The notes under the pieces were generated by a model. The model did no database searches, had not been told where the DNA came from, and saw only the letters and a program-made list of their open reading frames with translations. A program made the translations under genes and the position numbers. From sequence record OL362041.1: a stretch of DNA of 64,000 bases, one strand, 5' to 3'. How positions within the stretch are numbered: the first letter of the stretch is position 1; every line of letters starts with the position of its first letter. This DNA comes from Escherichia phage vB_Eco_OMNI12. Shown here piece after piece: positions 1,023 through 64,000 of the stretch.

Positions 1023-1553
<531 letters not shown>

Positions 1554-4880: not shown

Positions 4881-5023
4881 AATTTTTAGGGAATTCTAGG
4901 GCAGGGATGGGCAATTAAAGGATAGGATAATATATTATAAAGGGTATAAACTAAATGATGCCTAGAGAGGTCCAGAAAGGCCTAGATACCAAAAAGCCCT
5001 ATCATTTAGATAGGGATTTAAAA

Positions 5024-5587
5024 TTATTTACCTAGTTTACTTATTATAGCTTCTGCAGCAGCTTTTAGCTTAGATGCAGTGTTAATACGATTTTTAATTT
5101 CAGTATACGCATCGCCAAGAACATCAAGGCTATCAGAATAAACACTTACACTATTGCGTTCGCTATTTGAAATAGAACCTTTAGTTTTGCGGTCAAAATC
5201 GGTGTACACGTCTTGAAGATCGCGGGCTGCCTTCTTTGCATCATCCAATGCATCAAGAGCTTTATTCAAAGCATTAACGTATTTTTTAGTGTCGAACATA
5301 TTCTTAGAAATTTTAACAGGTGCGCGTTCAGGAGTAGCTAACACAGATTTAGGAACCTGAGCGCCAGATGCCAATTTCTTAGAAATTTTGAAAAATGCTT
5401 TATTGAATTTATTTTCTTGACTCATTGTAAAAGAACTATTATCGATGTTGTACATTTCAATAGCTTTAGCTTTCCACTTAAGAAAATCGCCGCGGTCTTT
5501 TGGGTCCAATTGGAAGAATACTTTAGTAAGATCTGCTTCAGATGGTAATTTTGCTGCTTCGGTTAAAAATTCGGCATAGGTTTTCAT
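5024..5587 (-). CDS. Internal-protein-like capsid-packaged protein (N-terminal CTS-like MKTYAEFLTE)
   Basis: 187 aa; N-terminus fits T4 internal-protein capsid targeting consensus; RBS AAGGA upstream. Confidence 0.6.
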   Translation of the reverse strand: MKTYAEFLTEAAKLPSEADLTKVFFQLDPKDRGDFLKWKAKAIEMYNIDNSSFTMSQENKFNKAFFKISKKLASGAQVPKSVLATPERAPVKISKNMFDTKKYVNALNKALDALDDAKKAARDLQDVYTDFDRKTKGSISNSERNSVSVYSDSLDVLGDAYTEIKNRINTASKLKAAAEAIISKLGK

Positions 5588-5675
5588 TTAAAATCCTTGA
5601 AATAATTTATCGGTTGGTTATTAATTATTTATTACTTTGTTACTATCCGTAACAGCGTTATCCGAGTGATTCAAA

Positions 5676-5704
5676 CTAAAAAGCCCCAACCTTTCGGTCG
5701 GGGC
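5676..5704 (-). terminator. Intrinsic terminator (GCCCCGACC-GAAA-GGUUGGGGC followed by UUUUU)
   Basis: Sequence aaaaagccccaacctttcggtcggggctaag; identical copy at 6235-6261. Confidence 0.7.
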
Positions 5705-5712
5705 TAAGAATG

Positions 5713-6186
5713 TCATTTGATTTGTTTAGCAGACCAAATGCGGTCTTTAATAATTTTTTGGATGTCTTCAACATACTCAAGAGAGTGAACATGTGGATTA
5801 TCTTTGAAACTATAAGCACGGGCTAACTTTTGGCCTTCGGTTTTGATTACTAAAAGCTCTTTAAGGATAGCTTCATATTTAGCGATAATTCCTTTAACGA
5901 TATTTTTTTCTTGTGCCGCTTTAGGATCTGCTTTAGGAGCAGGTTTACCCGAAGCCTTTGCAAAAGCAGCGCCAGTAGCAACTAAACTTTTCCAGGCCAT
6001 ACTAACTGCATTTCCCGTAAATCCTTCCGCTTTCATGTCGCGTGCAAACTGGAATCGCGATTCATCAGAAGCATCTTTATAGGAATATTTACCCGCGGCA
6101 ATGGCAGCTTTTGCAACAGCTTGAATTTCGGTGCTAGATGCTTCATTTAACACCGCTTCATTTAAAAATTGAGTATATGATTTCAT
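5713..6186 (-). CDS. Internal-protein-like capsid-packaged protein (N-terminal CTS-like MKSYTQFLNE)
   Basis: ORF track 5713..6363 runs through the terminator and tRNA-like region; true start taken at internal ATG with RBS AGGAAA. Confidence 0.6.
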   Translation of the reverse strand: MKSYTQFLNEAVLNEASSTEIQAVAKAAIAAGKYSYKDASDESRFQFARDMKAEGFTGNAVSMAWKSLVATGAAFAKASGKPAPKADPKAAQEKNIVKGIIAKYEAILKELLVIKTEGQKLARAYSFKDNPHVHSLEYVEDIQKIIKDRIWSAKQIK

Positions 6187-6234
6187 CTTATTTCCTGTTT
6201 TAATTTGTAGATTTAATATACTAATATTTATACC

Positions 6235-6261
6235 AAAAAGCCCCAACCTTTCGGTCGGGGC
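6235..6261 (-). terminator. Intrinsic terminator, second identical copy
   Basis: Identical hairpin plus U-run; ends the tRNA/stable-RNA transcription unit. Confidence 0.7.
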
Positions 6262-6265
6262 TAAG

Positions 6266-6578
6266 CCTTGCGGCAACCTTGTCGGGGTTCCACCTGCTAA
6301 GACAAGTGTTTGTACGAAACGCCGGGATTCGAACCCGGTTATTAAGTAGTTGACGCTACTCAATATTTTTAAAAGGCCATATCTCGACCATATCCGAACG
6401 TTCCGTCAAAAACGCTACTCGGCTTACGGCAAAGATATTTCCTCGAATCGATAATTCGGTGCGCCGTTTCTGCTGTGGTGTAAGAGGGCATCAACAAATC
6501 ATAAAGATTTATTAACGCAATTCCTTACCCAGGGAACATCAGTCCGACGACTTACCGGTAGCGACCCGGTTTCTTGTC
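6266..6578 (-). ncRNA. Candidate small stable RNA region (position of T4 species 1 / species 2 RNAs), includes tRNA-like element ~6314-6405
   Basis: Non-coding stretch between tRNA-Arg and terminator; T-arm-like CCGGGTTCGAATCCCGG with pairing acceptor-like ends CGGAACG / CGTTTCG. Confidence 0.4.
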
Positions 6579-6655
<77 letters not shown>

Positions 6656-6658
6656 TAA

Positions 6659-7324
6659 TTAAAATTTCATTTTTCGACCTTTAAACCATCCTTCTGGAAT
6701 TGGGTCAGTTTTCTTAATACGTTTAGAAACTTTTTCATCTAATGAATGAATCCACATCATACCAAATTGGGAATTCTTTTCACCTTGTTGGTGTTTATTT
6801 TTGGCGTGAGATTCTTTCATTTTATTAATAGTTTCAAGAGTATGGGTCTTACCCAAGAAAGATTTAATATTTAAAAATTTCTCTCTATACTTAGGATTAT
6901 CCCAAAGCTGTTTAAACCTTTCTGAACCCATTTTACGATATTTTTCTTTAAGGTCTGGGTCGTTCTCAAATCTGGTTTTAAAAGCAGCAGCCCCTTTTAA
7001 GGAAGCTTCTTTCTTTTTATCCAAATATTCTTTAGTGTTTAAATGGTCCCAACCACCTTCACCACCTAATTTCAAATTATAAACATCAGGGCGCTTTAAA
7101 AACTCTTCAGTCACAATATTCTTTTCTGACTCAAACATAGAGGTTTTATCGTCAAAGAACTCTAATATTTCTTTAGAGAAATTTTCTATACCATACTTGT
7201 CTTGGGCTCTTTTTAATAATTTACCAGAACCCATATATCCATCATCTAAATTTTCGGTAGAATGAGCGCCTATATAGATTTTATTATTAATTTTATTTGT
7301 TATTTTATAAGTGTAATGGAACAT
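6659..7324 (-). CDS. segB: GIY-YIG homing endonuclease (SegB-like) inside the tRNA cluster
   Basis: 221 aa; N-terminal YKITNKINNKIYIGAH...GYMGSG GIY-YIG motif; same position as T4 segB. Confidence 0.8.
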   Translation of the reverse strand: MFHYTYKITNKINNKIYIGAHSTENLDDGYMGSGKLLKRAQDKYGIENFSKEILEFFDDKTSMFESEKNIVTEEFLKRPDVYNLKLGGEGGWDHLNTKEYLDKKKEASLKGAAAFKTRFENDPDLKEKYRKMGSERFKQLWDNPKYREKFLNIKSFLGKTHTLETINKMKESHAKNKHQQGEKNSQFGMMWIHSLDEKVSKRIKKTDPIPEGWFKGRKMKF

Positions 7325-7365
7325 AAATATCTCCTATTTCTAAGAGTATTTATGTTCCCAAAATA

Positions 7366-7437
7366 TGGCCCTGGGTGGAATTGAACCACCATCTGGCGAT
7401 TATGAGTCGCTTGCTTGAACCTTCCAGCTACAGGGCC
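7366..7437 (-). tRNA. tRNA-Ile (anticodon CAU, presumably lysidine-modified)
   Basis: Acceptor GGCCCUG, anticodon loop CUCAUAA, T-loop GGUUCAAUUCC. Confidence 0.8.
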
Positions 7438-7443
7438 TTGATA

Positions 7444-7516
7444 TGCTGATTGACGGAATCGAACCGCCGACATCCTCATTACAAGTGAGGTGCTCTACCT
7501 ACTGAGCTAAATCAGC
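7444..7516 (-). tRNA. tRNA-Thr (anticodon UGU)
   Basis: Anticodon arm CCUCA-CUUGUAA-UGAGG, T-loop UUCGAUU. Confidence 0.85.
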
Positions 7517-7523
7517 GAAATTA

Positions 7524-7610
7524 CGGAGGCGATAGGATTTGAACCTATGAGTCACCGGAGCGACTGCCGGTTTTCAAGACCGGTGCATTAAACCACTCTG
7601 CCACGCCTCC
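7524..7610 (-). tRNA. tRNA-Ser (anticodon UGA), long variable arm
   Basis: 87 nt; acceptor GGAGGCG, anticodon loop CUUGAAA. Confidence 0.85.
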
Positions 7611-7612
7611 AG

Positions 7613-7686
7613 TCTCCGCGGCAGGATTTGAACCTGCGACATTCTGCTCCCAAAGCAGACGCTCTACCAAACTGAGCTACACGGAG
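7613..7686 (-). tRNA. tRNA-Pro (anticodon UGG)
   Basis: Anticodon arm UCUGC-UUUGGGA-GCAGA, T-loop GGUUCAAAUCC. Confidence 0.85.
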
Positions 7687-7698
7687 TAAATTAAATTT

Positions 7699-7770
<72 letters not shown>

Positions 7771-7776
7771 AAACTT

Positions 7777-7863
7777 TGGTACGAGAAGTGGGACTCGAAC
7801 CCACAAGGAAATCATTCCGCAGCATTTTAAGTGCTGTGCCTTTACCAATTTGACCATTCTCGC
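7777..7863 (-). tRNA. tRNA-Leu (anticodon UAA), CCA encoded
   Basis: 87 nt, long variable arm; anticodon arm CAGCA-CUUAAAA-UGCUG. Confidence 0.85.
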
Positions 7864-7864
7864 G

Positions 7865-7937
7865 CTGGGAATAAAGGACTCGAACCTTTGCATCTAGCAG
7901 TCAAAGTGCTATGCCTTACCAACTTGGCTAATTCCCA
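7865..7937 (-). tRNA. tRNA-Gln (anticodon UUG)
   Basis: Acceptor UGGGAAU, anticodon loop CUUUGAC; directly abuts tRNA-Leu. Confidence 0.85.
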
Positions 7938-9478: not shown

Positions 9479-9712
9479 TTATTTTTTACGAAAAATTGAT
9501 TTATTTTCTGCTGCCCATTTTTCAATAACTGCAGCAGGACCAGTAACAACAATTTTATCACCGTAATCTTCTGCGGCGAGTTGACCGAAATTATCTAATG
9601 CATCACGAAGAACTCCATGAGGCATTTCACCCATTTTATCTTTCTTGCCAGTGTAAATAAACTCAACTTTTACATCAGCAGTTTCAGCAATAAATTCTTG
9701 GTAAGTTTTCAT
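9479..9712 (-). CDS. Internal-protein-like small protein (N-terminal CTS MKTYQEFIAE)
   Basis: ORF track 9479..9724 (MEIKMKTYQEFIAE); start placed at second ATG with GGAAAT RBS. Confidence 0.6.
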   Translation of the reverse strand: MKTYQEFIAETADVKVEFIYTGKKDKMGEMPHGVLRDALDNFGQLAAEDYGDKIVVTGPAAVIEKWAAENKSIFRKK

Positions 9713-9724
9713 TTTGATTTCCAT

Positions 9725-9788: not shown

Positions 9789-10046
9789 TTATTTTAAATC
9801 TTCTAATCGTTTCTTCATCTTAGAACCATTTTTAGCAATTTCTCCTGCATCGGAGCATAATGCTAAAAGTGCTTTAACTTTAGTTTGGTCTCCTTTAAAA
9901 GATGAAGGATCGACCGCAGCAGCAAGTTCTTTAATACGAGAGAAAAGACGCTCAGCTTCAGCTAAAGCCATTCCAAGCTTTACTTCCATACCGTGGGAAG
10001 ATTCAGTGATAGTAGTTTTTGTAGCAAACTCTTTGAAAGTTTTCAT
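9789..10046 (-). CDS. Internal-protein-like small protein (N-terminal CTS-like MKTFKEFATK)
   Basis: 85 aa; RBS AGGAAA upstream; 3' end codons DLK-stop lie inside the repeated element. Confidence 0.55.
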   Translation of the reverse strand: MKTFKEFATKTTITESSHGMEVKLGMALAEAERLFSRIKELAAAVDPSSFKGDQTKVKALLALCSDAGEIAKNGSKMKKRLEDLK

Positions 10047-53704: not shown

Positions 53705-55473
53705 AAAAGCCACAAGAAATGCAAACGATGCGTAGAAAAGTTATTTCAGATAATAAACCAACACAGGAAGCGGCTAAATCCGCTTCCAATACTTTATCTG
53801 GACTTAATGACATTTCTACAAAATTGGATGATGCTCAAGCTGCTTCTGAATTAATAGCTCAAACCGTTGAAGAAAAATCGAATGAAATAATTGGAGCAAT
53901 TGACAATGTAGAAAGCGCAGTGAGTGATACTACTGCTGGTTCTGAGTTAATTGCTGAAACTGTCGAAATTGGCAATAATATTAATAAAGAAATCGGTGAA
54001 TCGCTCGGAAGTAAATTAGATAAATTAACGAGTTTACTCGAGCAAAAAATCCAGACAGCCGGAATTCAACAAACAGGAACTAGTTTAGCTACGGTTGAAA
54101 GCGCTATTCCTGTTAAAGTTGTTGAGGACGATACAGCTGAATCCGTGGGTCCTTTATTACCAGCTCCTGAAGCAGTTAATAATGATCCTGACGCTGATTT
54201 TTTCCCTGCCCCTCAACCAGTTGAACCTAAGCGAGAGTCACCGGAAGAAAAACAGAAAAAAGAAGCATTTAATTTAAAATTATCTCAAGCTTTAGATAAA
54301 TTAACAAAGACTGTTGATTTTGGATTTAAAAAATCCATTTCAATTACTGATAAAATATCAAGCATGCTATTTAAGTATACTGTCAGTGCTGCTATTGAAG
54401 CTGCTAAAATGGTTGCATTAATAATGGCTGTTGTTATTGGAATAGACCTACTGATGGTTCATTTTAAATATTGGTCAGATAAATTTTCAAAAGCCTGGGA
54501 TTTGTTTAGCACTGATTTTAAAACTTTTTCAAGCGAAACCGGAACTTGGGGTCCTTTATTACAGAGCATCTTTGAATCTATTGATGAAATTAAAAAGTTC
54601 TGGGAAGCGGGAGATTGGGGCGGTTTGACGGTAGCTATTGTAGAAGGGCTTGGAAAGGTTCTTTATAATTTAGGAGAACTTATTCAGCTTGGAATGGCTA
54701 AATTATCAGCAGCAATTCTTCGAGTTATTCCTGGTATGAAAGATACTGCTGACGAAGTAGAAGGAAGAGCACTGGAAAATTTCCAAAATTCTACTGGAGC
54801 ATCTCTCAATAAAGAAGACCAGGAAAAAGTTGCGAATTATCAAGATAAACGAATGAATGGAGACCTTGGTCCGATAGCAGAAGGACTAGACAAAATTGCG
54901 AACTGGAAAACTCGTGCATCTAACTGGATTCGTGGTGTTGATAATAAAGAAGCATTGACAACTGATGAAGAACGCGCAGCAGAAGAAGAAAAATTAAAGC
55001 AGCTTTCACCAGAAGAAAGAAAAAATGCTTTAATGAAGGCTAATGAAGCCCGTGCCGCGATGATTCGTTTTGAAAAATATGCTGATTCAGCTGATATGAG
55101 TAAAGACTCAACGGTTAAATCAGTTGAAGCTGCCTATGAAGACCTTAAAAAACGAATGGATGACCCGGATTTAAATAATTCACCGGCAGTTAAAAAAGAA
55201 CTTGCTGCTAGATTTTCTAAAATTGATGCTACTTATCAAGAGCTCAAGAAAAATCAGCCTAATGCCAAACCTCAAACTTCTGCTAAATCGCCAGAAGCAA
55301 AACAAGTCCAGGTAATAGAAAAGAACAAAGCACAGCAAGCTCCTATTCAACAAGCATCTCCTTCAATCAATAATACTAATAATGTTATTAAGAAAAATAC
55401 TGTCGTTCATAATATGACACCCGTAACGAGCACGACTGCTCCTGGTGTATTTGATGCGACTGGAGTTAATTAA
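53701..55473 (+). CDS. 29: Tail tube tape measure / baseplate hub protein gp29
   Basis: 590 aa. Confidence 0.93.
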   Translation: MKKPQEMQTMRRKVISDNKPTQEAAKSASNTLSGLNDISTKLDDAQAASELIAQTVEEKSNEIIGAIDNVESAVSDTTAGSELIAETVEIGNNINKEIGESLGSKLDKLTSLLEQKIQTAGIQQTGTSLATVESAIPVKVVEDDTAESVGPLLPAPEAVNNDPDADFFPAPQPVEPKRESPEEKQKKEAFNLKLSQALDKLTKTVDFGFKKSISITDKISSMLFKYTVSAAIEAAKMVALIMAVVIGIDLLMVHFKYWSDKFSKAWDLFSTDFKTFSSETGTWGPLLQSIFESIDEIKKFWEAGDWGGLTVAIVEGLGKVLYNLGELIQLGMAKLSAAILRVIPGMKDTADEVEGRALENFQNSTGASLNKEDQEKVANYQDKRMNGDLGPIAEGLDKIANWKTRASNWIRGVDNKEALTTDEERAAEEEKLKQLSPEERKNALMKANEARAAMIRFEKYADSADMSKDSTVKSVEAAYEDLKKRMDDPDLNNSPAVKKELAARFSKIDATYQELKKNQPNAKPQTSAKSPEAKQVQVIEKNKAQQAPIQQASPSINNTNNVIKKNTVVHNMTPVTSTTAPGVFDATGVN

Positions 55474-55481
55474 GGAATAAT

Positions 55482-56576
55482 ATGGCAATTGTTAAAGAAA
55501 TAACTGCTGATTTAATTAAAAAGTCCGGTGAGAAAATTTCAGCCGGACAGAGTACTAAATCAGAAGTAGCAACTAAAACATACACTGCCCAGTTTCCAAC
55601 TGGGCGTGCTAGTGGTAATGACACTACAGGGGACTTCCAGGTAACAGATCTATATAAGAATGGATTATTATTTACTGCATACAATATGTCATCTAGGGAT
55701 TCTGGAAGTCTTAGAACGATGAGATCTAACTACTCTTCTTCATCTTCGAGTATTTTACGTACAGCCAGAAACACTATCAGTAATACAGTATCAAAACTAT
55801 CAAATGGACTAATATCAGATAATAATTCAGGAACAATAAGTAAAGTTCCTGTTGCAAATATTCTTTTACCTAGATCTAAATCTGACGTCGATACGTCATC
55901 ACATAGATTTAATGATGTTCAAGATAGTCTTATTACAAAAGGTGGAGGTACTGCTACTGGTGTGCTAAGCAATATGGCTTCAACCGCAGTATTTGGAGCG
56001 CTGGAAAGTATAACACAAGGTATAATGGCTGATAATAATGAACAGATTTATACGACAGCCAGAAGCATGTACGGCGGTGCTGAAAATAGAACTAAAGTGT
56101 TCACTTGGGATTTGACTCCGCGCTCAACAGAAGATTTAATGGCTATTATTAATATCTATCAGTATTTTAACTATTTTTCTTACGGTGAAACTGGTAAATC
56201 TCAATATGCTGCTGAAATAAAAGGATATCTAGATGAGTGGTACCGTTCTACTTTTATTGAGCCGTTAACTCCAGAAGATGCAGTTAAAAATAAGACGTTA
56301 TTTGAGAAAATGACATCGAGTTTAACTAACGTTCTTGTAGTTTCAAACCCGACAATTTGGATGGTGAAAAACTTTGGTGCAACATCTAAGTTTGATGGAA
56401 AAACGGAAATATTCGGTCCATGTCAAATCCAGAGTATCAGATTTGATAAAACACCTAATGGTAACTTTAACGGATTAGCTATTGCTCCAAATCTCCCTAG
56501 TACATTTACTCTCGAGATTACTATGAGAGAAATTATCACGTTAAACCGTGCTTCTTTATATGCGGGGACTTTTTAA
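55482..56576 (+). CDS. 48: Baseplate-tail tube junction protein gp48
   Basis: 364 aa. Confidence 0.92.
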   Translation: MAIVKEITADLIKKSGEKISAGQSTKSEVATKTYTAQFPTGRASGNDTTGDFQVTDLYKNGLLFTAYNMSSRDSGSLRTMRSNYSSSSSSILRTARNTISNTVSKLSNGLISDNNSGTISKVPVANILLPRSKSDVDTSSHRFNDVQDSLITKGGGTATGVLSNMASTAVFGALESITQGIMADNNEQIYTTARSMYGGAENRTKVFTWDLTPRSTEDLMAIINIYQYFNYFSYGETGKSQYAAEIKGYLDEWYRSTFIEPLTPEDAVKNKTLFEKMTSSLTNVLVVSNPTIWMVKNFGATSKFDGKTEIFGPCQIQSIRFDKTPNGNFNGLAIAPNLPSTFTLEITMREIITLNRASLYAGTF

Positions 56577-57541
56577 TGTATTCTTTAGAGGAATTTAATA
56601 ATCAAGCAATAAACGCAGATTTCCAACGTAATAATATGTTCAGCTGTGTTTTTGCTACAACTCCATCAACTAAAAGCTCTTCGTTGATAAGTTCAATTAG
56701 CAACTTTTCTTATAATAACTTGGGCCTAAATTCAGATTGGTTAGGATTAACTCAAGGCGATATTAATCAGGGAATTACTACGCTAATTACAGCTGGCACA
56801 CAAAAACTGATAAGAAAATCAGGGGTTAGTAAATATCTTATTGGTGCCATGAGTCAACGTACAGTTCAAAGTTTATTAGGCTCATTTACAGTTGGTACAT
56901 ATTTAATTGACTTCTTTAACATGGCATATAACTCATCTGGATTGATGATATACTCTGTAAAAATGCCAGAGAATAGATTATCCTATGAAACTGACTGGAA
57001 CTATAATTCTCCTAATATTCGTATAACTGGGAGAGAATTAGACCCTTTGGTTATTTCATTCAGAATGGATTCAGAAGCTTGTAACTATCGTGCAATGCAA
57101 GACTGGGTTAACGCTGTTCAAGACCCAGTAACTGGATTGCGTGCTTTGCCGCAAGATGTCGAGGCTGATATTCAGGTTAATCTTCATTCTCGCAATGGAT
57201 TACCACATACTGCGGTGATGTTCACTGGATGCATTCCAGTGTCCGTAAGCGCTCCTGAGTTATCATATGATGGAGATAACCAAATAACTACATTTGATGT
57301 TACTTTTGCGTATAGAGTCATGCAGGCTGGAGCAGTTGATAGACAAGCTGCGCTTGAATGGCTTGAATCTGCTGCTATAAATGGTATTCAAAGCGTTCTC
57401 GGAAATAGTGGAGGTGTCACTGGACTATCTAATTCGCTTTCACGACTTAGTAGATTAGGGGGAACTGCAGGAAGCATTTCAAATATTAACACTATGACAG
57501 GAATTGTCAATTCGCAAAGTAAAATATTAGGAGCAATATAA
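56576..57541 (+). CDS. 54: Baseplate-tail tube initiator gp54
   Basis: 321 aa. Confidence 0.92.
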   Translation: MYSLEEFNNQAINADFQRNNMFSCVFATTPSTKSSSLISSISNFSYNNLGLNSDWLGLTQGDINQGITTLITAGTQKLIRKSGVSKYLIGAMSQRTVQSLLGSFTVGTYLIDFFNMAYNSSGLMIYSVKMPENRLSYETDWNYNSPNIRITGRELDPLVISFRMDSEACNYRAMQDWVNAVQDPVTGLRALPQDVEADIQVNLHSRNGLPHTAVMFTGCIPVSVSAPELSYDGDNQITTFDVTFAYRVMQAGAVDRQAALEWLESAAINGIQSVLGNSGGVTGLSNSLSRLSRLGGTAGSISNINTMTGIVNSQSKILGAI

Positions 57542-57546
57542 CAATG

Positions 57547-57563
57547 GGGACCTTTCGGTCCCC
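57547..57563. terminator. Stem-loop GGGGACC-TTTC-GGTCCCC between convergent gene 54 and the 96-aa ORF
   Basis: 7-bp GC stem followed by ATATTTTTATTT. Confidence 0.6.
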
Positions 57564-57569
57564 ATATTT

Positions 57570-57860
57570 TTATTTACGGAATGAAATGAAAGCAGCAACT
57601 GAAGCAACTAAACTGTCTTCAATATAAACTTCAATTTTTACCGGAGCTTCTGACTCAAATTTACCTGTTACTACACCCTGAAAAATACTTTCAGTCTGTT
57701 CTGGCTTTGAAAAATTTTCAGAAGGAAAAATTCCGAACTTTTTATCTGTTCCAAAAATTTTGATAAATTCATCGTAAACTGCTTCATTAAAAGCATTATC
57801 AGCAGGAATAACGCCTTCAACTACAAGTTCTTGACCTAAAAAGCGCAAAGAAGATTTCAT
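57570..57860 (-). CDS. Hypothetical protein downstream of the Alt paralogs
   Basis: 96 aa ORF. Confidence 0.6.
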   Translation of the reverse strand: MKSSLRFLGQELVVEGVIPADNAFNEAVYDEFIKIFGTDKKFGIFPSENFSKPEQTESIFQGVVTGKFESEAPVKIEVYIEDSLVASVAAFISFRK

Positions 57861-57920
57861 TTTGTGTTCCTCATGTTATGTCAGTAAGACTACTATAACA
57901 CAACACGAGGGACTTGTAAA

Positions 57921-59978
57921 CTACATCTTGAACTTTTTAGACATTCCGTTGATGTTAACCAAAGAAGCTAAGATTTGAGAAACTTCGTTTTCCTCTTCTT
58001 TTGATTCTTCTACAAGGAATTGATTAAATCCAGCCATTGGACGAACTTCACCAGTTTCCATTAGATGGTCGCCATCATATACTGATTCTTCTAATTGTTC
58101 AGAAGGAGGAACGATTGTACCTTCGATTAGATACTTGTTATAAGCAGTTTCTTTCATAAAGTAAGTACTTACTTTATTAATCTTCAGTAAAATTCCACGT
58201 GGTAGAATAACTTCAGCTTCTGACGGAAATCCTGATAAATGACCCGGAACGATAACTTTGATTCGCTCAGCTCCTTTAATTACCATACCCACGCTAGTTT
58301 CAGCATCTTCATTAGCATATGTAGAATGACTACCCATATGCATCAAATCTTCTGCATCAACGGAACCTTCTCCTTCACCAGAAAATACTGCGCCGGAATC
58401 ATCTAGAGCCATATAGTTTTTACCATGCTCACCGAAGATATTTGGTTTAAGCGATGTGGATACGAAGTTCTTGAAATAGAACATTTTATTTTCAATGTTA
58501 TGACGCAAAGTTTTAAAGGTAACTTCTTGTCCACGGTAAAGTGTAGTTCCTGGAGGAAGAACTGAACCTTTAGCGAATGCAGAATCAAGCGTCTCAATAT
58601 GTTTAATAGCTCGTTCCATATATTCTTCACGGGTAGAATCTGGTTTACCCAAAAGGAACGAGTTCATTTCAACATATGAATCTGCACAATAATCTTCAAT
58701 TACATCAGATTCAGCTTGAGTTAATCCTTTTGGAGTTACTTCAGTGCTTGCGTATTCATATGCCTGAGCAGCAGATTCATTAATCAATTTATAAATGCCA
58801 TTCATGACAAATTGAATAATAGCTGTCTTTTCATCTGGCGTAGCTTTAGAACCTTTAACCAAATCATTGATAATTTTCTTAATAACATCAAAGCTATTAG
58901 AAATATTAATATCAGCAAGATCGCTTAAAATTTTATCAGTCTTATAATCAAAGAATTCTTTATTCTTTAAATATTCTTGAGAACCTTGATATGTTATATC
59001 GCTCTGTAACTTGATAGATGGATCACGTAAACGTGCATGGGCTAATGCAATATGATTTCGGAAGCTTTCGAGTTCATAATCACTAGATTTAAAACGAGAA
59101 GCGCTTCTCATACCGCCTATAGCTCCTTTGCTGAAGTTTGAACCAATTTGAATAACGCCAGAGTTCATTGGTCCTTCTGCTTTATACACCGGAACTTTAG
59201 ATTCAAACTCTTGATATTTCTTAGCAGCGAAGCTATCACCCTGAAGTGAAGCATCAACAGTAGAATATTGAGCTTGTGCTGCTAATCGACGACTAATTTT
59301 AGTTTTCTGAATAACAGCTTGGTCCGTGCGCTTATCATTTTCTAAAGCAATAGAAGCAGCAACAGCAACAGCTTTAGGAACAGCATTACCTGTTTTAACA
59401 TCTACATAAACATCACCAACCTTTGATTCAACTTTTGTGAATAACTCAGTTGAAATAGGAGGTACACCTGGAATGTCTTCTAAATTGGCATTTTTACGAT
59501 AAACCATAATATATGCGTACTTTTTATCATAATCCCAGATTTCCTTTAAAAGAACATATCGACCTGCTCCTTTAGTACGTACTAAACGGTCAGCAATAAC
59601 TTGCATTTGACGAGCAGCGCCATTTGTTTTACTCTTTAGTACGCGGAATAAGCATGCATCAATTTTATACTGTTTCATTGTTTGAAGAGCAGTATCAAAA
59701 ACAGCGTTAATGACGCCAATTGGATTTCCACCCAAGTTTCTAAGTTTAACCAGTGATAATTTCTCGTTGACACCTATCATTACGATATGCATCATTTTAT
59801 CGCCTGGCTTAACGTTTTTATTCGTATCACCACCAGAGGTGTATGTACAAAATCTAAATCCAGGAAGCACGCTTTCTTCGCCGGCTTGAATAGCAAAAAT
59901 TTGTGGTATTTTATGCTTAGGATTTAAGTTAACAACCGGCGCCGAAGCGCCGTCAAATAATTCTGTAATAAGTTCCAT
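57921..59978 (-). CDS. Alt-family mono-ADP-ribosyltransferase, second tandem paralog
   Basis: 685 aa MELITELFDGASAPVVNLNPKHKIPQIF...; R-S-ExE motifs (TLYRGQ, FVSTSL, EAEVILPRG); N-terminal ~210 aa similar to the adjacent Alt. Confidence 0.85.
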   Translation of the reverse strand: MELITELFDGASAPVVNLNPKHKIPQIFAIQAGEESVLPGFRFCTYTSGGDTNKNVKPGDKMMHIVMIGVNEKLSLVKLRNLGGNPIGVINAVFDTALQTMKQYKIDACLFRVLKSKTNGAARQMQVIADRLVRTKGAGRYVLLKEIWDYDKKYAYIMVYRKNANLEDIPGVPPISTELFTKVESKVGDVYVDVKTGNAVPKAVAVAASIALENDKRTDQAVIQKTKISRRLAAQAQYSTVDASLQGDSFAAKKYQEFESKVPVYKAEGPMNSGVIQIGSNFSKGAIGGMRSASRFKSSDYELESFRNHIALAHARLRDPSIKLQSDITYQGSQEYLKNKEFFDYKTDKILSDLADINISNSFDVIKKIINDLVKGSKATPDEKTAIIQFVMNGIYKLINESAAQAYEYASTEVTPKGLTQAESDVIEDYCADSYVEMNSFLLGKPDSTREEYMERAIKHIETLDSAFAKGSVLPPGTTLYRGQEVTFKTLRHNIENKMFYFKNFVSTSLKPNIFGEHGKNYMALDDSGAVFSGEGEGSVDAEDLMHMGSHSTYANEDAETSVGMVIKGAERIKVIVPGHLSGFPSEAEVILPRGILLKINKVSTYFMKETAYNKYLIEGTIVPPSEQLEESVYDGDHLMETGEVRPMAGFNQFLVEESKEEENEVSQILASLVNINGMSKKFKM

Positions 59979-59981
59979 GAT

Positions 59982-62036
59982 TTATCCTTGAACGAACTTG
60001 TAAGGCATGTTTGCAATATCTATACAAGACGCAATAATTCCAAGAGATGATTCTACTTTCTGTTTAACATTTGATGAAACAAATGATGCAAAATCAACTC
60101 TGTCTTCTATTTCAATATCACCTGTCATTGTAACTACTTCGCCGGTTTCCATTAGACGGTCACCGTCATAAATTACCGATTCGGTGAGTTCTTCTGTGGT
60201 CATAACTTCAGCTTGAATAAGCTTGTTGTTAGTTTTAACTGTTCCATCATTGTAAGATGCATCGGTTATTTTATTAACTTTGACCATTAATCCACGTGGC
60301 AAAATGACTTCCATTTCATTTGAAGGTGCTAAACTTCCACCTGGTAAAACAACATTGACTTTATCAGCCCCAGTAATAACCCATCCAATTCCAACTAAAT
60401 TATCGCTAGAATTTACTAGTCCTTCATCAGTTTTATCAATAGAAACACTTAAACGCTTTTCGTCTGGTAAAACACCCACAGATGAATCAGTCATCCAGGT
60501 ACCAAAAATATTTGGATATAATGATGTTGACACAAAATTTCTAAAATAAAAAACTCGATTTTTTACCAGTGCTTCATATATTGAAGGTAACATTCGTTGT
60601 GAACGATACAAAGTAATACCTTTTGGTAATCGTTCACCATTTTTAAAGGCAGAATCTAAATTATCAATAGCTTTTTCTATATCAGATGCTGTCAAAATAC
60701 TTGTACGCTCATCTGGATTATATAATCCCAAAAGAGCGTTATTTATGTCTACATATCCTGAACTTACGTATTCACGAATTCCGCGTTTTTGTGCCGGTGT
60801 GTATTTAGATGAATCTTTATTTTCGACTATAGGATGTAGTGACCATCCAGCGGTAAGAGCATATCCACGCAATTCTCTTCGAATAATCTTTGTTTTTATT
60901 GCATTCCAAGAATTTTGTACTAACTCATTCGCAGCATCTTGATTTAAATGCGAATGCTTGTTAATGTTTCTTTCTAACCAAGCACCTTTATATTTTTCTA
61001 AAGTATCATCAACTATAGAAGCAATAGTTTCTAAAGTTTTTATTGAAGTAATAGATTCTTTTCGTAATCTTTCTAAAGCTTTATTTTTTATTTCTGCATT
61101 AACATCAGATTCTTTATCTTCAGGAATTATAGAAGCTTCTCTGAATGCCATTCCAGCTGTAACACTACTAAGAGCATTCTCTAATGCAAATCCTGAAGTA
61201 GAAATAACAGTTAATTCATTAGCGTCAGAAATTAAAGGAGCGTCAGCAGGTTTATTTAATTCTGCTGCTGAAGCCTCAAATTTTTGAAACATCGGCGTTT
61301 CAAATCTAGAAGATTCCAATGATTGACTTTGCGCAATTGCTCTACGGGAAATTTTAACTTTAACGATTACAGCTTGGTCAGAACGTTTATCATTTTCTTG
61401 TGCAATAGATGCTGCAATTGCCTCATTTTTGGTTACTTGAACTCCGGTATCTTTATTGATATAAACATCACCGACCTTCGATTCAACTTTAGTAAAGAGC
61501 TCGGTACTAATTTCCGGAACTCCTGGAATGTCTTCTAGTGATACATTTTTGCGATGTATAAGAATATATGCATACTTTTTATCATAATCCCAGAGTTCCT
61601 TAAGAAGGACGTATCTGCCACCTGAACGACTACGGATAAGTCTATCAGCAATAACTTGAATTTGTCGAGCTTGACCAGCGGTTTTAGACTTAAGAATACG
61701 AAGCATACAAGCATCAATTTTATACTGACGCATTGTTTGCATTGCAACAGTAAAAACTGAATTGATATAATTAATTGGGCTTGGACCAAGACCTTTTAAT
61801 TTAGCAATTGAACCTTTAGCAGTTAATGTAAAAGGAACAATATGCATCATTTTATCGCCCATCTTTAAATCGCGATTAGTATCACCTCCAGATGTATAGG
61901 TACATAAACGAAAACCTGGTTGTTCAATTGCATCATCAACATGAACTGAAAAAATTTGTGGTATTTTCTTCTTTGGATTTAAGTTTGTAATCGGAAGAGT
62001 AGTATCTTCGTCAAATAATTCTGTAATAAGTTCCAT
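59982..62036 (-). CDS. alt: Alt ADP-ribosyltransferase (capsid-packaged)
   Basis: ORF track 59982..62039 (MMELITELFDEDTTLPITNL...); start at second Met; R-S-ExE motifs (TLYRSQ, FVSTSL, EMEVILPRG). Confidence 0.9.
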   Translation of the reverse strand: MELITELFDEDTTLPITNLNPKKKIPQIFSVHVDDAIEQPGFRLCTYTSGGDTNRDLKMGDKMMHIVPFTLTAKGSIAKLKGLGPSPINYINSVFTVAMQTMRQYKIDACMLRILKSKTAGQARQIQVIADRLIRSRSGGRYVLLKELWDYDKKYAYILIHRKNVSLEDIPGVPEISTELFTKVESKVGDVYINKDTGVQVTKNEAIAASIAQENDKRSDQAVIVKVKISRRAIAQSQSLESSRFETPMFQKFEASAAELNKPADAPLISDANELTVISTSGFALENALSSVTAGMAFREASIIPEDKESDVNAEIKNKALERLRKESITSIKTLETIASIVDDTLEKYKGAWLERNINKHSHLNQDAANELVQNSWNAIKTKIIRRELRGYALTAGWSLHPIVENKDSSKYTPAQKRGIREYVSSGYVDINNALLGLYNPDERTSILTASDIEKAIDNLDSAFKNGERLPKGITLYRSQRMLPSIYEALVKNRVFYFRNFVSTSLYPNIFGTWMTDSSVGVLPDEKRLSVSIDKTDEGLVNSSDNLVGIGWVITGADKVNVVLPGGSLAPSNEMEVILPRGLMVKVNKITDASYNDGTVKTNNKLIQAEVMTTEELTESVIYDGDRLMETGEVVTMTGDIEIEDRVDFASFVSSNVKQKVESSLGIIASCIDIANMPYKFVQG

Positions 62037-62059
62037 CATAGCCTCTCTAGTGTTTATTC

Positions 62060-62067
62060 TATTTATA
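62060..62067 (-). promoter_or_regulatory. Late promoter TATAAATA upstream of alt
   Basis: Minus-strand motif 24 nt upstream of alt ATG. Confidence 0.55.
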
Positions 62068-62073
62068 AAATTA

Positions 62074-62091
62074 AAGGCCCGAAGGCCTTTA
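62074..62091 (-). terminator. Stem-loop AAAGGCC-UUCG-GGCCUUU overlapping stop of the 62-aa ORF
   Basis: GC hairpin with UUCG loop. Confidence 0.5.
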
Positions 62092-62277
62092 GTAATCTAG
62101 TGGTAAGAGAGTACGATATATTTCAAACTTTGGTCCTTTTTCATAGGCATCAAATGTTTCTGTAAATTTATTATAAGCGTATGCATCTACAAATTCGAGA
62201 ATGACTTGTGATACAGAAGTAGAAACATCTCCACCTTCTTTTTGAGCAATGACAATTGTTTCTAAGTAAGCTTTCAT
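62089..62277 (-). CDS. Hypothetical small protein between ligase and alt
   Basis: 62 aa ORF overlapping ligase start. Confidence 0.55.
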   Translation of the reverse strand: MKAYLETIVIAQKEGGDVSTSVSQVILEFVDAYAYNKFTETFDAYEKGPKFEIYRTLLPLDY

Positions 62278-63737
62278 AAACCAGTTACCTCATGAAAATC
62301 ACCAAATACATCCTCGAATGTATTAGCTTTAGTTTTATCTTCACGTAAACGAATCGCAATCGGAAGAAATAATTTAACGTAATCAGTGCGGCCATCAGAT
62401 TTTAACCAACCGTTGCATTCGCACTCTAGAATTTTTCCAATATAATAATTTTGGTTTTCCATAATGCGAGTACGGTCAAGTTCATGCGATTTTACACCGG
62501 CTTTATCTTTTAAGCCTGAACCAGCATTTACCTTAATTTTTCCACACTCTGATTCAAGAATAAATCCACCCGCTTTAGTAGGGTCTTTACGGTGAGGATA
62601 AATTCCTACAATTTTTAAATCAACATCAATTACTTCTTTAAATTTATAGAGATTTTTTGAACGAGCATTTTCCCACAATCCATCGGTATTTTTGAGAATA
62701 ATACCTTCAAGACCTTGGTCAATATACTTTTTATAAATTACCTTAGCTTCATCTAGGTTATTTACTACCTGGTTTTCAATTAAAATTACTTTATCATAAC
62801 CTGATGTCATTTGTTCTAGTTTAGAAAAACGTACATCATATTTCAAACGAAATGCAGGAAGACCGTATATTTCTACCAACGGGACATAATCCCAGACCTG
62901 AAACTTCATGCATTGAGCTTCTTTTTCAGAAATGGTTCCCTTTAAAGATTTATTGGCGATGCCATTAGATGCAGTACGTGATTCAGCTACTTCGGCGAAT
63001 TCTTTAGCTTTACTAATTTCAGGATAAGCATCAAAAAGAAAATCTAGGCCTTCTGGCTCCTTTTCAACTTGCTCATGGTATACCAATTCGCCATCAATTA
63101 ACACACCTTCTGGATGAATCTGGCGGGCTTCAGCAGTCATTTTGATTAACTCTTCCTTAAGAAGATCTAATCCTAGATATTCATTACCAGCTCGTGATAA
63201 AAGACGAACATCATCTAATTCATCACCTCTGACTTCAGCAAAACACCGAGCTCCATCAGCTTTTAACTGGGCAAAGGCTGGAAATTTGATATTCTTACTA
63301 ATGCCTTTTTCATCATAAGAACTTGCAAGCATTTGAGGTTGTTCAGGAATTAAACCTGGCCAAACTTTGTTTGCAATAGATACTGAAGCACCGCATTCAA
63401 GGTCTCGCATCATCACCCGACGCAAAACTTCAACATCATCTTTTTTACCGTCAGTAATATATCCAGTTAATTCCTCAATTGCCGCATTTCCAGTCAATTT
63501 CCGAGTAGCTAACGTGAATTCAATGAAGTCAAGCATATCGGTAAGAGTCAACATTCCAAAACTCTGGGTAGCAATACCCGGTTTAGGCCATTTCTTGATA
63601 TAATACTGTAACCCACGAGAATAAGTCAGACGATATACTCGTTTAAGCAATTCATTATCTTTATTCTTTTCAAGAATTGCTTGCTTCTGCTTAGTTGAAC
63701 CAATAGATGCTATTTCGCTCAGAATTTTAAGAATCAT
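62274..63737 (-). CDS. 30: ATP-dependent DNA ligase gp30
   Basis: 487 aa MILKILSEIASIGSTKQKQAILEKNKDNELLKRVYRLTY... Confidence 0.96.
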   Translation of the reverse strand: MILKILSEIASIGSTKQKQAILEKNKDNELLKRVYRLTYSRGLQYYIKKWPKPGIATQSFGMLTLTDMLDFIEFTLATRKLTGNAAIEELTGYITDGKKDDVEVLRRVMMRDLECGASVSIANKVWPGLIPEQPQMLASSYDEKGISKNIKFPAFAQLKADGARCFAEVRGDELDDVRLLSRAGNEYLGLDLLKEELIKMTAEARQIHPEGVLIDGELVYHEQVEKEPEGLDFLFDAYPEISKAKEFAEVAESRTASNGIANKSLKGTISEKEAQCMKFQVWDYVPLVEIYGLPAFRLKYDVRFSKLEQMTSGYDKVILIENQVVNNLDEAKVIYKKYIDQGLEGIILKNTDGLWENARSKNLYKFKEVIDVDLKIVGIYPHRKDPTKAGGFILESECGKIKVNAGSGLKDKAGVKSHELDRTRIMENQNYYIGKILECECNGWLKSDGRTDYVKLFLPIAIRLREDKTKANTFEDVFGDFHEVTGL

Positions 63738-64000
63738 TGTTCATCCTTTAGAGTTTGGTTTACAGCTCTATTATAAATCAATTCATCATTAAGCTCAGTC
63801 AAAGACCTGTGGTACGTGGTTCTAACTTTATTTCCTTGCATCCAGTGCTTGACGTAAATGAAACCTTGCTCTACACATTTTTTAAAAATTCGTTCGTCTT
63901 TTTGAGCTCGGAATTCTGGATTGCATCTAAAAAATTGATTTACGTGACCGTAATCACGTGTAGTATTACCTTCATTTTCATAAATAGTATGAACAACAAA
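63734..64000 (-). CDS. Hypothetical protein, C-terminal part only (gene starts beyond window end)
   Basis: Open minus-strand frame ...KKCVEQGFIYVKHWMQGNKVRTTYHRSLTELNDELIYNRAVNQTLKDEQ ending in TGA overlapping ligase ATG. Confidence 0.45.
   Translation of the reverse strand, partial: FVVHTIYENEGNTTRDYGHVNQFFRCNPEFRAQKDERIFKKCVEQGFIYVKHWMQGNKVRTTYHRSLTELNDELIYNRAVNQTLKDEQ

Follow-up and report, generated by a model that had tools for sequence, protein, structure and literature searches.

A stretch of 64,000 nucleotides from Escherichia phage vB_Eco_OMNI12 (sequence record OL362041.1), referred to here as the window, was analysed at its alt locus. Two genes of the Alt family of ADP-ribosyltransferases (ARTs) lie there in tandem on the minus strand. 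The upstream gene is alt, in the allele found in phage T4, and encodes the head-packaged RNA polymerase ADP-ribosyltransferase; the downstream gene is an intact paralogue, designated alt2. Judged from their sequences, both products are full-length Alt-family ARTs of the R-S-E clade that have kept their catalytic residues. The DNA is that of a Tequatrovirus (T4-like phage) with the ancestral two-gene form of the locus, and this two-copy form is the ancestral and majority state of Tequatrovirus, real but ordinary. We favour, with some reservation, the reading that Alt2 would be a second late-made, head-packaged and injected arginine mono-ADP-ribosyltransferase, trimmed by the prohead protease gp21 and with a target range unlike that of Alt. 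What was established here is the integrity and homology of the genes, their catalytic residues and predicted fold, the selection on them, their distribution and the history of the deletion.

The open reading frame (ORF) listing of the window contained two minus-strand ORFs of 685 codons each, at 59982..62039 (alt) and 57921..59978 (alt2). Upstream stop, gap and downstream start read TAA-ATC-ATG, a spacing of 3 nt. An earlier note on this DNA, made from the sequence, had described two adjacent 685-residue ORFs 3 bp apart, and both the ORF list and the sequence bear this out. The note also had both proteins starting with MELITELFD. MELITE is present in both, but the upstream ORF as listed begins MMELITE, because it opens with ATGATG. 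The same two codons occur in T4, whose annotation takes the second as the start, so that the upstream protein has 684 residues by the T4 convention. The true start of alt is probably this second ATG, at position 62036.

Proteins were compared using BLASTP. The upstream product was 98% identical to T4 Alt (NP_049811) and is its orthologue, as the note had proposed. Alt2 was 41% identical to T4 Alt over its whole length (E 1e-161) and 41% identical to the Alt of the window, also over the full length (E 2e-158). The closest relative of T4 Alt in this genome is therefore the upstream copy (98% vs 41%), and the orthologues of Alt2 form a separate tight group. Amino acid identity between Alt and Alt2 was 68% over residues 1-238, 21% over the middle (residues 239-410), 39% over the ART domain (residues 411-619) and 42% over the C-terminal tail. 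The shared N-terminal block of ~210 residues in the note thus exists and extends to ~238 residues, and the strong divergence claimed for the central and C-terminal regions was found. Both proteins matched the Pfam family PF03496 (ADPrib_exo_Tox), at 120.9 bits for Alt and 71.9 bits for Alt2 (cut-off 23.4 bits), and PHROG 802 ("Alt-like RNA polymerase ADP-ribosyltransferase") from end to end (Alt2 residues 1-685, E 2e-256). Neither matched an NCBIfam family. Gene order in the window is gp48, gp54, alt.-3, the two ORFs, alt.1 and DNA ligase gp30, which matches T4, T2 and OE5505. GC content is uniform at 0.32-0.39 across both alt genes and resembles that of the flanks; no sign of a foreign origin was seen.

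The catalytic Arg, the S-T-S motif and ExE are invariant across T4-type Alt, T2-type Alt and Alt2. In 22 family members, with identities down to 42%, the Arg, the two Ser and both Glu are invariant and the middle Thr is nearly so. ModA and ModB were aligned to the family at the Arg, the first Ser and both Glu, and CDTa at YR and ExE. The R-S-ExE signature that the note had seen in both copies is therefore retained in these alignments. Within the R-S-E clade, ExE rather than QxE indicates arginine specificity. The residues directly before ExE are FPS-EAE in Alt2, PSN-EME in T4 Alt and I-A-T in T2 Alt. We take this stretch to be the substrate-recognition (ARTT) loop of C3-like ARTs, which has an aromatic residue in C3 and CDTa and likewise in Alt2. 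Replacement of the second Glu of ExE in Alt (E577A) gives a catalytically dead protein (PMC11404850).

The AlphaFold2 model of Alt2 (mean pLDDT 72, pTM 0.60) has an N-terminal alpha/beta domain, a confident helical middle and a C-terminal domain matching known arginine ARTs. Foldseek with this model returned Vis (E 3e-7), so the predicted fold of the C-terminal domain is that of an ART. Two sequence searches gave no solved Alt structure: phmmer with Alt2 found no match among PDB sequences, and the hits of a profile made from five Alt sequences were limited to CDTa, iota and Vis (E 7e-5 and weaker). The catalytic R, S and ExE and the ART fold of Alt and Alt2 recur in other members of the R-S-E clade in PF03496, namely ModA/ModB and the bacterial C3, VIP2, iota Ia, CDTa and Vis. 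None of these has gp21 propeptides or the N-terminal and middle modules of Alt, and ModA and ModB are in addition small (~200 residues), early and unpackaged. By its sequence features, Alt2 appears to bear all the marks of a packaged, active enzyme. A second Pfam entry, PF26846, is precomputed alongside PF03496 on every full-length Alt2 homologue (P0001-P0120). It was absent from the output of our own Pfam scan and presumably covers the Alt-specific N-terminal or middle module.

The downstream gene was then compared with the corresponding T4 DNA by alignment. T4 retains the first 348 nt of alt2 (347 in T4) at ~95% DNA identity. A single-base deletion in an A run splits the frame of this remnant into alt.-1 and alt.-2 (NP_049810 and NP_049809); in the T4 GenBank note these are put down to an old duplication affecting the first part of alt. 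Beyond the junction only the last 11 nt of alt2, TCAAAATGTAG, are kept, stop codon included. The DNA missing from T4 amounts to 1699 bp and is bounded by a 9-bp direct repeat, CTAAAAAGT, at alt2 nt 340 and 2039. Among five alt2 alleles compared, the repeat is exact in those of T2 and O157kw and has one mismatch in the window. Because the missing 1699 bp are flanked by direct repeats, T4 is a deletion derivative, its gene broken by the 1-nt frameshift as well as by the deletion between the repeats, and an insertion peculiar to the window phage was rejected. T4 annotation and DNA alignment together confirm the suggestion of the note that an intact paralogue stands where T4 has only small alt.-x ORFs.

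Distribution was examined with the DNA that T4 lacks (57930-59620). At a threshold of at least 80% coverage it was present in 401 phage records, including T2, T6, AR1, PST and Shfl2, and in 380 of these at DNA identity of at least 95%. The T4 deletion junction was contiguous in 91 records, namely in isolates of T4, in RB55 and RB59, and in phages from the wild (VEc20, SG1 and slur03 among them). With tblastn, an Alt2 orthologue at protein identity of at least 80% was found in 402 records (223 at 99% or higher); the best match in the other 819 matching records was below 60% identity, i.e. to more distant Alt-family genes. The protein cluster of Alt2 at 90% identity has 772 member sequences. In OE5505, T2 and others, RefSeq labels both genes "Alt-like RNA polymerase ADP-ribosyltransferase". 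The second Alt-like genes of T2 (YP_010073850), OE5505 (YP_010072485), T6, fD1 (g200) and ~400 other Tequatrovirus records are the same gene as alt2; they agree with it in position and in the 3-nt spacing, and their proteins are 97-100% identical to it. The alt2 of the window shows no notable difference from them and is one more instance. The unusualness implied by the note did not survive these counts (401 two-copy vs 91 remnant records), the presence of the gene in T2 and T6 and its RefSeq annotation. The note had named a full-length second copy in T4 itself as grounds for calling the pair conserved; T4 has no such copy, but most T4 relatives do.

Orthologues of Alt2 gave ratios of nonsynonymous to synonymous divergence (dN/dS) of 0.02-0.06, with dS up to 0.27, and none of the five alleles checked had an interrupted frame. 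For Alt against Alt2, dS was saturated (>1.2). Dhakavirus QL01 (KT176190, 121465-127725) has three tandem full-length Alt-like genes of 694, 681 and 707 residues at the same locus, with 3-bp gaps. The last copy (c) is 51% identical to Alt2 vs 37% to Alt, shares the KFKM end of Alt2 and groups with it; the first copy (a) groups with T2-type Alt at 67% identity. Since these copies group with Alt2 and T2-type Alt, the duplication is older than the two genera, and a recent duplication was rejected on the saturated dS and the Dhakavirus orthologues of both copies. The arrays of QL01 and of Aeromonas phage 44RR (ORF187c; PMC1524935) resemble that of the window in that full-length Alt paralogues follow one another at this locus, 3 bp apart, and differ from it in copy number and in their 37-67% identity to the window genes.

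Processing signals were compared with those of T4 Alt, which is cut by gp21 at ITE-6 and LTE-619 to give a protein of 68.2 kDa (PMC5694885). The same cuts in the Alt of the window give a calculated mature mass of 68.16 kDa. The corresponding motifs of Alt2, at the aligned positions, are ITE (residues 4-6) and LEE (629-631), and the mature product predicted from them has 625 residues and a mass of 69.1 kDa. In the model, both motifs lie at the edges of segments predicted to be disordered (1-11 and 628-663). Upstream of alt, TATAAATA at 62067-62060 is the sole late-promoter motif of this type on the minus strand within 55000-64000. The two genes are probably co-transcribed because they are 3 nt apart, and the pair looks like one late transcript. 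With both cleavage motifs at the T4 Alt positions and the gene behind the alt late promoter, Alt2 is likely to be packaged.

The course of events that we propose is the following. One late transcript from TATAAATA would encode Alt and then Alt2. Both proteins are built of four parts: a conserved N-terminal module with the MELITE propeptide, a divergent helical middle, a C3/VIP2-type arginine-specific ART domain with R-S-ExE and a C-terminal propeptide. Alt2 would enter the prohead core, as Alt does, and gp21 would trim it after ITE-6 and LEE-631 to a protein of ~69 kDa. The trimmed protein would remain in the head and be injected together with the DNA, and would then use NAD+ to mono-ADP-ribosylate arginines of host proteins before any phage gene expression. 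Alt is reported to modify Arg265 of RNA polymerase alpha and other proteins (PMC2988021), and the target set of Alt2 would differ at least partly from this one. Different host targets, which the note had drawn from the two specificity regions, are plausible because the middle region is so divergent and because the residues just ahead of ExE are not the same. Roughly a fifth of the sequenced relatives, and laboratory T4 itself, have lost Alt2 through the 1699-bp deletion, so that Alt2 would be conditionally useful rather than essential.

Several points weigh against this proposal. Late expression, packaging, cleavage, injection, activity and the target difference are steps that we infer for Alt2, and the target difference in particular is drawn from divergence between the two proteins. 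T4 Alt is promiscuous, so the overlap between the targets of Alt and Alt2 could be large. Any function of Alt2 would be dispensable on common hosts, since T4 and 90 other records are without it. No late-promoter motif of its own was found for alt2 on the minus strand within 55000-64000, so that its expression would depend on read-through from alt. The Alt2 model reaches moderate confidence (pTM 0.60), from a shallow alignment of 22 sequences.

Alt2 might instead be a redundant copy that does the work of Alt, with alpha Arg265 and the same side targets, and is kept for dosage or as a backup. Alt and Alt2 are alike in architecture, catalytic motif and locus, no defect of T4 from the loss of Alt2 is known, and the gene has been lost in 91 records. 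The two differ in overall (41%), middle (21%) and ART-domain (39%) identity, and FPS-EAE in Alt2 stands in place of PSN-EME, in what from general knowledge would be the ARTT loop. Both lineages also predate the split of Tequatrovirus and Dhakavirus and each is under strong purifying selection, which is unexpected for pure redundancy. We regard this explanation as unlikely.

A further explanation, that late-made Alt2 acts in the producing cell rather than from the virion, modifying host or phage proteins, for example against an abortive-infection or toxin system, is in our view quite unlikely. It would suit the finding that the sole promoter signal detected is late, and the neighbouring gene alt.-3 is tied to escape from a defence system. 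Alt2 nevertheless keeps the MELITE propeptide and a C-terminal LxE site at the positions processed in Alt, and these would be useless to a cytoplasmic enzyme.

It is very improbable that Alt2 is retained mainly for a structural role in the prohead core, its enzymatic activity being secondary or lost. In favour of such a role, conservation is highest in the N-terminal module (68% between the paralogues, near-identity between T4-type and T2-type Alt), and a published description makes Alt a core protein in its own right (PMC11404850). Against this stand the catalytic residues, invariant in the 22 diverse members, strong purifying selection over the entire gene (as a length average), the finding that Alt is unnecessary for head assembly (PMC9958956) and the many viable phages in which alt2 is deleted. 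That the downstream ORF is a degenerating duplicate or an annotation artefact, a pseudogene heading for the state of T4, where the locus has decayed into small ORFs, is effectively refuted by the intact frames, the low dN/dS, the 401 records and the 772-member cluster.

Signs of exchange within the locus were seen at the upstream gene. The T2-type Alt (YP_010073851, 697 residues; NC_054931, 119807-121900) occupies the same upstream position as T4-type Alt. The N-terminal 238 residues and the C-terminal end of the two types are near-identical (dN 0.004 and 0.045, respectively), but a different cassette makes up the middle and most of the ART domain (dN 0.65 and 0.31), and identity is 72% overall. 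The upstream gene is dimorphic: only 174 of 518 records matched the T4-type allele over 80% or more of the query and have its middle and catalytic region, and most of the others matched at 80-90% identity, where listed over only 35-41% of the query, like T2. T4 combines T4-type Alt with a deleted Alt2 and the window T4-type Alt with an intact Alt2; T2 combines T2-type Alt with an intact Alt2 and SP1 T2-type Alt with a deleted Alt2. All four combinations therefore occur, which argues for recombination within the locus. The alt locus appears to behave as constant end modules around exchangeable cassettes.

Coordinates of the features at the locus are collected in Table 1.

Table 1. Features of the alt locus in the window (positions on the 64,000-nt stretch; residues in ORF numbering).
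Feature	Position	Strand	Basis or detail
alt, T4-type allele (head-packaged RNA polymerase ADP-ribosyltransferase)	59982..62039	-	98% identity to T4 Alt NP_049811; PF03496 120.9 bits; PHROG 802 full length
alt2, intact alt paralogue, 685 aa	57921..59978	-	BLASTP, PF03496, PHROG 802
Alt gp21 cleavage motifs	ITE 62019-62027; LTE 60180-60188	-	
Alt2 predicted gp21 cleavage motifs	ITE (4-6) 59961-59969; LEE (629-631) 58086-58094	-	
Alt key residues	R479 60603-60605; S504-T-S506 60522-60530; E575-x-E577 within 60309-60326	-	
Alt2 key residues	R482 58533-58535; S507-T-S509 58452-58460; F584-P-S-E587-A-E589 58212-58229	-	
Alt2 Pfam ART domain	~58119-58733	-	PF03496
T4-type late promoter TATAAATA	62060..62067	-	Just upstream of alt; motif search, same context in T4
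Shine-Dalgarno-like AAGGA	59985..59989	-	Within last alt codons, 6 nt before alt2 start
Left 9-bp repeat, CTAAA(G/A)AGT	59631..59639	-	alt2 nt 340-348; one T4 deletion endpoint
Right 9-bp repeat, CTAAAAAGT	57932..57940	-	alt2 nt 2039-2047; other T4 deletion endpoint
GC-rich hairpin with T run, terminator-like	62072..62091	-	Between alt.1 and alt late promoter; annotated terminator at homologous place in OE5505
alt.1, 62 aa, Pfam Phage_blade	62089..62277	-	Between DNA ligase gene 30 and alt; PF24647 E 1.9e-29; T4 annotation
Early-type sigma-70 promoter, (G)TTTACA-17-TATAGT with upstream TG	57892..57920	-	Directly after alt2 stop; scan
alt.-3, 96 aa, DUF5498, not an ART	57570..57860	-	PF17602 E 1.4e-64; T4 annotation
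Hairpin between alt.-3 and gene 54, scored as terminator on both strands	57544..57565		Scan; annotated terminator in OE5505

The early-type promoter after alt2 is nearly fully conserved in T4, with one substitution, and would give alt.-3 expression of its own, apart from the late alt/alt2 transcript. Mutants with a C-terminal extension of alt.-3 allow T4 to escape the CmdTAC defence system (PMC11618068); the alt.-3 of the window is of wild-type length.

Other differences from T4 were noted within the window. The T4 genes for internal proteins, ipII and ipIII, are absent near ~967-974, where the denV side joins almost directly to the lysozyme gene e (1023-1517, minus strand). A stretch of 1.2 kb (5015-6230) was without a match in the part of T4 used for comparison (63-82 kb) and contains minus-strand ORFs at 5024-5587 and 5713-6363. 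Their N-termini resemble the T4 capsid targeting sequence (MKTYAEFLTE/AAK and, from an internal start, MKSYTQFLNE/AVL), and their products are candidates for alternative internal proteins that are injected. In place of the T4 ipI locus there are two small minus-strand ORFs, 9479-9724 and 9789-10046, with N-termini like the capsid targeting sequence (MEIKMKTYQEFIAE/T and MKTFKEFATKTTITE/S). The window phage appears to carry a set of packaged proteins unlike that of T4, besides the extra Alt. At ~16370, ~560 bp of T4 have no counterpart; the part concerned lies between 5.1 and 5.4 and takes in most of segC, a homing endonuclease gene, and the whole of 5.3. Eight tRNA genes are present at 6579-7937 (minus strand), as in T4, with a segB-like ORF (6659-7324) between tRNA-Arg and the remaining tRNAs. 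ARAGORN called tRNA-Met (CAT) where T4 annotates tRNA-Ile; the CAT anticodon is presumably read as Ile after modification.

The tandem pair itself was already known: it is annotated in hundreds of genomes, the duplication has been in print since 2006 and the idea of divergent paralogues since 2026. Among the duplications of alt that gave paralogues, Nolan et al. (2006) listed T4 alt.-1/alt.-2, RB49ORF183c and 44RRORF188c; they gave 44RRORF187c as a duplicate of full length (PMC1524935). [quoted passage not shown] The literature searched contained genomic mentions of the second Alt, and no experiments on it were found.

The reference phage T4 is thus the exception, through a simple repeat-mediated deletion, and about four in five sequenced Tequatroviruses, including T2 and T6, keep a strongly conserved second Alt. 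A wider reading, to which we give a little less than even weight, is that most natural T-even phages inject two different arginine ADP-ribosyltransferases and that T4 has lost one of them. On this reading the alt locus would be an array of one to three injected effectors, in which constant packaging and propeptide modules flank exchangeable cassettes for target recognition and catalysis (T4-type Alt, T2-type Alt and Alt2), reassorted by recombination much like polymorphic toxins. Alt2 would hit targets beyond those of Alt, possibly host defence or toxin-antitoxin proteins, or NAD-capped RNA. NAD-capped RNA is used by ModB. The targets of Alt2 would complete the picture of T-even reprogramming in the first seconds of infection and could explain differences in host range or defence evasion between T4 and its relatives. 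If most T-even phages do inject two ARTs, one of the earliest enzymatic events in infection would have escaped decades of work on T4.

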